The notes under the pieces are model-generated. The model did not search any database and was not told the origin of the DNA. It saw nothing but the letters and a program-made list of their open reading frames with translations. Of a DNA stretch of 64,000 bases, positions 44,189 to 44,676 are shown piece after piece; within the stretch, counting starts at the first letter, position 1, and each line of letters starts with the position of its first letter. A program made the position numbers and the translations under genes. The stretch spans positions 868,001 to 932,000 of the forward strand of contig CAVNZM010000010.1 of assembly GCA_963693365.1 (NCBI GenBank). Direction: 5' to 3'. This DNA is from Amoebidium appalachense. Lineage: Eukaryota; Protista; Ichthyosporea.

Positions 44189-44676
44189 GAAGGGAAAAAT
44201 CCGCCAGTATGACGGTATGGGAAGGACACGGTACAAAGAGTCAGGCACGTGACTACACAGGGACTTTCTCATGTATGTATCCTTGTACCTGTGCGTGCCT
44301 TTGGGGGAAGGAGGGGGAGGTGAGGGGGGGGAAGGGGGGGGGGGGGGGAGGGGGTTTGAATGCGTCATAACGTACGAAGTACACAAGAACAACGGATAAC
44401 ACGATGCGCAATGCAAACCATACATAAAGAGTATGCATAATAAGCAGAGCCCATCCTCAGGGGGAGGCCCACGTCATCCACAGTACCCGAGTTTCGACCC
44501 ATTCACCTCGTTAACGAAACCCAACTCAGATACTGTTTCACTTGAACATGGGTGGGTCACCCGTCTTGATCAGAGACGAGCAGGGTTACTTATGCAGGCA
44601 AAGGCAGTGAGAAAGGCCGGGGGTTAAAGTTGCAGCAGTAAGCAGAGGCAAGAAAAATATAGATAGGAACTCAGGA

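Follow-up and report, generated by a model that had tools for sequence, protein, structure and literature searches.

Eckert et al. (2023; PMC10085705) described hammerhead ribozymes of type SGC, namely HRIMA-1 and the SGC variants. One type-GCS candidate aside, they found no example in a known organism's genome, and non-circularly permuted hammerheads have so far been validated only from environmental sequence, with host and role unassigned. According to the same authors, alignments of known hammerheads never show more than 1–2 nt between CUGAnGA and its stems, and stem I of HRIMA-1 comprises 5 bp.

Craig et al. (2021; PMC8557442) reported no canonical hammerhead for Naiads and most Chlamys elements. 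They give (C)n targets for Chlamys and mention non-autonomous members of the Naiad/Chlamys group. A third relevant class is that of the non-LTR retrozymes (bioRxiv 10.64898/2026.07.22.740005), which are described as short non-coding hammerhead repeats, proposed to be non-autonomous Penelope-like derivatives; they form tandem arrays, and introns are reported to be free of the vertebrate ones.

Here we analyse a window of 64,000 nt from Amoebidium appalachense, to which all coordinates below refer, and a dispersed repeat in it that carries hammerhead blocks in scrambled order.

The repeat family and its genomic setting

The window is eukaryotic, with three tRNAs and with intron-rich genes for a ZIP transporter and a seryl-tRNA synthetase. 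The tRNA genes (39219–39837, minus strand) are near-identical, lie in sense orientation in the last ZIP intron (exons at 40126 and 38698) and carry a 14–15-nt insert after GACUGU according to Rfam. The data suggest intron-containing tRNA-Tyr(GUA) genes; ARAGORN run with the bacterial code calls Leu. For a 62-aa exon of the synthetase, the top-scoring match is a low-quality bird record (74% identity); the best named match besides it is an 'Ihof' protein of EukProt (84%), read as Ichthyophonus hoferi, and Sphaeroforma is among the matches too. This single exon points, weakly, to an ichthyosporean as the likely host. Other features of the window are a ZIP transporter exon (50614–51918, minus) that is very long and made of His-rich repeats, an apparently intron-poor BTB/POZ-domain frame with a following orphan frame between intron-rich genes (54065–55432, plus), and an A+T-rich, non-repetitive stretch at about 26000–26500 that is unlike its surroundings.

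BLAST of the window with three queries revealed 18 repeat fragments (counted as non-overlapping, queries included), 17 of them on the minus strand, that belong to three subfamilies, A, B and C. The complete ribozyme domain is present in 3 of the 18, and all three lie inside ZIP gene introns in sense orientation. These are the subfamily-A copy A44 (44356–44655, minus), located in an intron of the ZIP zinc-transporter gene and ending in GCAUUCAA followed by a C run; a second A copy, A40 (40651–40950, minus; G10.1 at 40853, U16.1 at 40819, G12 at 40790, C3 at 40756); and the B copy B49 (48874–49152, minus; G10.1 at 49109, U16.1 at 49074, G12 at 49041, C3 at 49007). The other 15 fragments lack the complete domain. 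Among them, a 5'-truncated C copy (C38; 37925–38113, minus; G12 at 38094, CUGAUGA from 38059) has no S block in the window. A 5'-truncated A copy at 45005–45148 (minus) begins at GUCGAAA and stands head to tail with a truncated B copy (44837–44952) and A44, so that the array at 45148–44356 mixes subfamilies, with C runs between the copies. Another truncated A copy (58758–58892, minus) lies among seryl-tRNA synthetase exons on the same strand. A40 starts about 30 nt past a 5' splice site (40951–40980, minus), and the UGAGUUCC motif precedes A44 as well. The sole plus-strand fragment (26906–26983) directly follows a reading frame on the plus strand and a donor-like GUAAGU, and seems to be sense to its host gene too. 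A strand bias of C runs in introns may underlie the orientation of the repeat.

A C run (at least 5 C within 25 nt) follows all 13 fragments that reach the 3' end, against a high background of C runs. The family combines the 5' truncation and the insertion at (C)n expected of a non-autonomous Naiad/Chlamys Penelope-like element. Subfamilies A and B align at 79%, the alignment being confined to the structured domain and the 3' end; most of the tail is unalignable. A Pfam scan of 115 of the 149 candidate frames of the window detected no reverse transcriptase or endonuclease, and no autonomous GIY-YIG/RT partner sharing the 3' end was seen within the window. The repeat is C-tailed and 5'-truncated, and likely a non-autonomous retroelement. 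In three DNA runs, 6902, 6433 and 5356 contigs matched the A stretch, and 1651, 1854 and 1743 the C stretch; thousands of contigs indicate that the family is abundant, with the proviso that depth is not copy number. Loose ends and joint letters of the contigs also hint at more subfamilies, which differ in their stem III sequences, at copies with internal deletions, and at numerous copies whose truncation lies at the C run immediately preceding CUGAGGA.

The hammerhead core and the probable partner of stem II

The first-pass annotation had proposed a hammerhead on the minus strand, and all of its motifs turned out to be present where they had been placed. In A44, stem III begins with the 5' strand 44536–44525, followed by U16.1 (44524) and U17 (44523). 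Cleavage is predicted after GUU, between 44523 and 44522. The 5' strand of stem I is GGG (44522–44520; GGAG in B), and directly after it stands a hairpin (44519–44506), to which B and C have a counterpart of other sequence; its tip (44509–44516) is self-complementary in A, B and C. Next come UGGGUC (44501–44496), the stem II strand ending in C11.1, GAAA (44495–44492) and the stem III 3' strand (44491–44480). Further downstream, CCCC (44464–44461) supplies the 3' strand of stem I, CCC (44463–44461), after which come CUGAGGA (44460–44454), UG, of which the U (44453) is extra, and GGCUC (44451–44447). The earlier count of 11 bp for stem III plus A15.1–U16.1 holds for strands 44535–44525 and 44491–44481; we draw the helix with 12 bp, from 44536–44525 and 44491–44480.

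The differences described earlier for B49 relative to A were likewise found, namely GGAG/CUCU in stem I and, in stem III, two changes of U.G to U–A, one of A–U to G–C and one G.G mismatch. So were the CUGAUGA of C38 at 38059 and a drawable 6-bp AGAGUC/GGCUCU helix. At the site of the G.G mismatch, a loose-end row at 44478 (10 contigs) indicates C in other B copies. The stem III sequence differs between the subfamilies and its pairing is kept.

All three complete copies have the reversed cyclic order UH, GAAA, CUGANGA (blocks S, G and C), together with the core C3 U4 G5 A6 N7 G8 A9, G12 A13 A14, A15.1–U16.1 and an H17 that is not G; for subfamily C, the core was read from the window copy plus loose ends. 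Stems I, II (G10.1–C11.1) and III are in register with the core, stem I having just 3–4 bp. Within CUGANGA, only N7 differs among subfamilies (G in A and B, U in C), and H17 is U in all three. The core positions listed as changed in the DNA-run contigs are only U4 (0.6–3.2% of depth) and C3 (0.6–4.3%). A run with a different organism label yielded 7 C-type contigs on 38022–38109, six of them at a depth of 2–2.5; single low-depth contigs among these have core-breaking letters (H17 = G, GAAC, G8 to U) and may be decayed copies, errors or carry-over.

A descriptor covering all six block orders was run on the window, and its matches, at 44460 and 40756, were all of type SGC; B49 failed because of its G.G mismatch. 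The cyclic order C, G, S of the circularly permuted types I–III did not occur. A reading of the C copy as a type II hammerhead was rejected, there being no UH after its local hairpin. In 100 block-wise dinucleotide shuffles, 0.01 SGC loci were found per window, none with a stem III of at least 8 bp. As had been anticipated, standard models miss the element, since Rfam at the gathering score returned no ribozyme and only the three tRNAs. In viral contigs the motif was matched exactly 13 times, always in the absence of the upstream blocks, and these matches were judged to be chance. In metagenome contigs a strict pattern had no match, and a loose one gave 120 loci (121 matches) with both core motifs in 8 of the 64 parts of the collection; among the best-ranked 15, none reached all three stem thresholds.

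One assignment of the first-pass annotation is probably wrong. It had paired stem II with the downstream GGCUC, a helix that is broken by the majority A variant, while the upstream strand GACCCA (44558–44553, minus; G10.1 = 44558) pairs better with 44501–44496 and covaries, C44554 with G44500. The upstream helix has 6, 6 and 5 Watson-Crick bp in the three complete copies and one double change, pair 5 being U–A in A40 and C–G in A44 and B49. In the three DNA runs, 44500 is changed (G to A) in 94.6–96.2% of A-family depth and 44554 (C to U) in 94.8–96.6%, the linkage of the two being phased in the window copies alone; for comparison, three private A44 changes that were checked show 99.5–100% of depth. 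With G44500 changed to A, the downstream helix is reduced to 4 bp, 2 of them G–U, with a duplex energy of −2.3 kcal/mol, as against −7.3 kcal/mol for the upstream helix with C44554 changed to U. Double changes affect none of the five pairs of the downstream helix and one of the upstream helix. Since the upstream strand is better paired and covaries, and the majority variant breaks the downstream helix, the sequences argue that the core is likely split, A9 and G10.1 being separated by two inserted helices, stems IV and V. Block C is then interrupted, contrary to the definition of type SGC; subfamilies B and C can still form the downstream alternative. All three subfamilies share the downstream GGGCUCUG unchanged, and in B and C it is capable of 6 bp with the strand of block G. 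A conserved CUC bulge has no explanation in the split model. For longer C copies, that model predicts GACUC before the return arm described below and two further strands, one complementary to GGCAUAGG and one, in stem IV, to UGUUCAAG.

A kink-turn motif and the proposed overall fold

The earlier fold is supported as to the block order, the pseudoknotted topology, stems I and III, the minus strand and the predicted cut; it missed a kink-turn (k-turn) motif, the return arm that continues stem III and two further helices, stems IV and V. Stem IV consists of a 5' strand (44593–44583; outer part 44593–44587, inner part 44585–44583) and a 3' strand (44452–44440) made up of GGG (44452–44450), the CUC bulge and 44446–44440, which overlaps the stem II strand of the earlier reading. 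Stem V is an 8-bp hairpin (44581–44559) with the loop CUGAUCA, whose 3' end abuts G10.1. In A, this loop is one letter off CUGANGA, and the palindrome UGAUCA within it (44567–44573) is shared by A and B; loop V and the hairpin tips could possibly make kissing or dimer contacts. The return arm, which is the C-stem of the k-turn, has its 5' strand at 44552–44543 and its 3' strand at 44476–44468, with one U–G to A–U double change in B.

A k-turn consists of a canonical stem, a 3-nt loop and tandem G.A and A.G pairs. In A44 the bulged strand holds the loop AGU (44542–44540), G1b (44539), A2b (44538) and A3b (44537), opposite G3n, G2n and A1n (44479–44477); in B49, 1b and 1n are at 49090 and 49023. 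All three complete copies agree with the consensus, with loops AGU, AGC and GUU and with A.G, A.G and U.U as the 3b.3n pair. The C-stem has 3 bp, one bulge and then 6 bp. The distance from the k-turn to the core is 15/15, 15/15 and 16/15 nt in the three complete copies and, by eye, 15/16 in subfamily C, where the loop is partly visible and the majority U at 38078 (99.3–99.7%) restores the adjacent pair. That the spacing is constant despite unrelated stem sequences suggests a geometric role for the motif.

The strands of the model follow one another as stem IV 5', hairpin V, stem II (G10.1 strand), return arm, k-turn motif, stem III 5', UH, stem I 5', hairpin, stem II (C11.1 strand), GAAA, stem III 3', k-turn motif, return arm, stem I 3', CUGANGA, U and stem IV 3'. 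Its nested helices are those of the minimum-energy fold of A44, and the two pseudoknots occupy segments left unpaired in that fold. In all three copies the summed energy of the model, before loop penalties, lies 6–13 kcal/mol under that of the unconstrained fold. Plain folding is unremarkable (z of −1.68 and −0.24). In the three-row alignment, 97.3% of 147 cells are paired and 5 pairs are changed on both sides, versus 0–1 for slid partners; this covariation, drawn from three related rows and consensus loose ends, is descriptive, and related rows can beat shuffles without structure. A revised, split-core descriptor, written after the copies had been seen, matches all three complete copies, none of 300 shuffles and none of 133 control loci.

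An expectation set beforehand concerned longer C copies, which were to carry, upstream, a strand complementary to ACCCAU, then U-H and then a G run. This content was found. On the minus strand, the loose ends at position 38113, present in 30, 26 and 33 contigs of the three runs, read CAAAGUAUGGG, UU and GGG; the first strand forms 10 bp with the 3' strand of the window C copy itself, and a small hairpin comes next. The guessed position of the loose end, 38127, was wrong. Divergence at 38113 also led us to reject the idea that C38 starts exactly at the cut site. A comparison by eye of stem III between C and A gives 5 double changes if no gaps are allowed and, with gaps, one double change plus two compensated 2-bp indels.

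Proposed mechanism, rival explanations and known systems

Judging from sequence, we consider it reasonably probable that the repeat folds into a reversed-order hammerhead with its core split between A9 and G10.1, which cuts after GUU, slowly or under control, in the copying cycle of a likely non-autonomous retroelement. Stem III would form first, folding into a long hairpin whose apical loop holds UH and GAAA. At the k-turn, which lies 15 steps away from the core, the distal arm would bend back and return its base, and the upstream stem II strand and the downstream stem I/CUGANGA strand, which flank that base, could then reach the loop as two pseudoknots. The tests of the k-turn and of the upstream stem II strand led us to abandon the alternative that the return arm is no more than an inhibitory helix. 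Cleavage would be slow or gated, possibly via a k-turn-binding protein of the L7Ae/Snu13 type. Cutting would trim head-to-tail or host-intron transcripts to unit or circular RNAs, which a Penelope-like reverse transcriptase of the Naiad/Chlamys type may copy into C runs. Genomic copies retain about 130 nt upstream of the predicted cut site, which the 3' product by itself could not have templated; uncut RNA would be compatible with this, and so would a monomer that is circular or derived from a tandem. Among 24 of 1104 loose-end rows, genomic 5' ends do not accumulate at the cut site, and contigs cannot show RNA ends.

Several other explanations have to be weighed against this proposal. A plain type-SGC ribozyme, which we regard as unlikely, would have GGCUC, downstream, as the partner in stem II, behind an inserted U (or UG). 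A fourth helix would assist, made by GUGGGC with GCUUAU in A and by GAAC with GUUC in C, and the upstream strands would be an inhibitory fold or one state of a two-fold switch. The published variants share CUGAnGA-U-G and UAG(A/G)GUCGAAA, close to blocks C and G here, and flanks slowed the published SGC ribozymes (PMC10085705). The downstream helix has 5, 4, 6 and 6 bp in A44, A40, B49 and C38; the invariance of GGGCUCUG, its 6 bp in B and C and the U after A9 in published variants keep this reading, or a two-state switch, under consideration. The fourth helix, formed by the linker between blocks G and C with sequence 3' of stem II, can be drawn with 4–6 bp, pairing being kept between A and C, and constrained folding forms it in A44 once the leader is removed; it competes with stem IV and the return arm, its register differs between A and C, and A40 has one pair fewer. 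The weak downstream duplex of the majority A variant, with its broken pair 5, and the absence of double changes among the five downstream pairs both speak for the upstream strand, and the k-turn motif with its fixed spacing is left unexplained by a plain SGC fold. We give a similarly low probability to a real fold with absent or negligible cutting, that is, a ribozyme relic serving as a recognition structure for a reverse transcriptase or a k-turn-binding protein. This reading survives because introns tolerate complete copies in sense orientation and because the 24 of 1104 rows show no accumulation of 5' ends; the short stem I and the upstream sequence kept in genomic copies agree with it. It has difficulty with the invariance of the non-Watson-Crick catalytic nucleotides across three subfamilies with diverged stems and tails, and the published SGC ribozymes are slow (0.007–0.13 per min with flanks, according to the same paper), a rate that introns might tolerate.

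Much less probable is cutting only in trans or as a dimer, where one molecule would provide the stem III loop and the other the CUGANGA strand, with self-complementary loops helping. The palindrome of loop V in A and B, the self-complementary hairpin tip in all three subfamilies and the title of a work cited in PMC10085705, on Penelope-associated hammerheads cleaving as dimers, point that way; the palindromes are a post hoc observation, and an intramolecular route is available through the leader bridge and the constant k-turn spacing. A chance order of motifs in a G/C-rich repeat is barely credible. C runs do make a 3-bp G–C stem I cheap, and the descriptors were tuned on the same copies, yet the shuffles and control loci gave almost nothing and the longer C copies carry the predicted blocks, which largely excludes chance.

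The split-core hammerhead with integrated k-turn, to which we return here as the preferred reading, can be compared with three described systems. With Naiad/Chlamys Penelope-like elements the repeat shares 5' truncation and a C-run target, a likeness of layout; it differs in that no RT or GIY-YIG partner was seen in the window. In the supplement of PMC8557442, three Naiad consensus 3' ends (two octopus ones and a third before Naiad_Mley) have by eye the same strand order, with a stem II strand upstream of the S block. In the two octopus ends, unlike in our repeat, the k-turn-like motif is separated from the core by 4 bp and has the opposite orientation. Such a ribozyme is absent, by eye, from the 3' ends (about 500 nt each) of nine C. 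reinhardtii Chlamys elements, so that membership of the Naiad/Chlamys clade is a lead and not a result. The ends of Chlamys-1, -2 and -5a_cRei in that supplement have AAC plus a C run, weakly resembling the A/B tail. It is a tentative and rather doubtful extension that an active, k-turn-braced split-core class is common to Naiad/Chlamys-type retroelements from animals to unicellular relatives. Such a class would be the missing ribozyme of this Penelope-like clade, which is reported to lack hammerheads, with a host k-turn-binding protein as the switch and circular templates explaining C-tailed copies with an intact ribozyme. The repeat makes it testable why these retroelements seem to be without hammerheads.

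Like the non-LTR retrozymes, the family is a short, non-coding, hammerhead-bearing and likely non-autonomous repeat; unlike them, its copies are dispersed or loosely head to tail via C runs, they are intronic, and the ribozyme is scrambled. A description of a split-core, k-turn hammerhead was not found in the literature searched, mostly outside subscription papers, and in view of the limit of 1–2 nt given by Eckert et al., a split core has no validated precedent in the literature seen. If true, it means that the A9–G10.1 link can be opened, against a definition that assumes uninterruptible core blocks, and a natural k-turn in a hammerhead is a handle for protein control.

The closest relatives in terms of topology are the type-SGC hammerheads of Eckert et al. 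The S, G, C order, the intact core, the double pseudoknot, the U after A9 (present in many published rows) and a similar stem II strand before GAAA are common to both, and the hammerhead of the repeat has the SGC block order with a block C that is likely interrupted. The repeat differs from type SGC in that G10.1 likely belongs to a strand of its own further upstream, stems IV and V separating it from A9, in the k-turn motif within a long stem III, in the hairpin of the S–G linker and in a stem I of 3–4 bp, shorter than that of HRIMA-1. It also differs in being a eukaryotic genomic repeat. With its many genomic copies and diverged subfamilies, such a family would provide this topology with a host, a biological function and deep covariation data, and the window itself offers three subfamilies, C runs as the target, and a direct test by covariation of the two candidate stem II strands.
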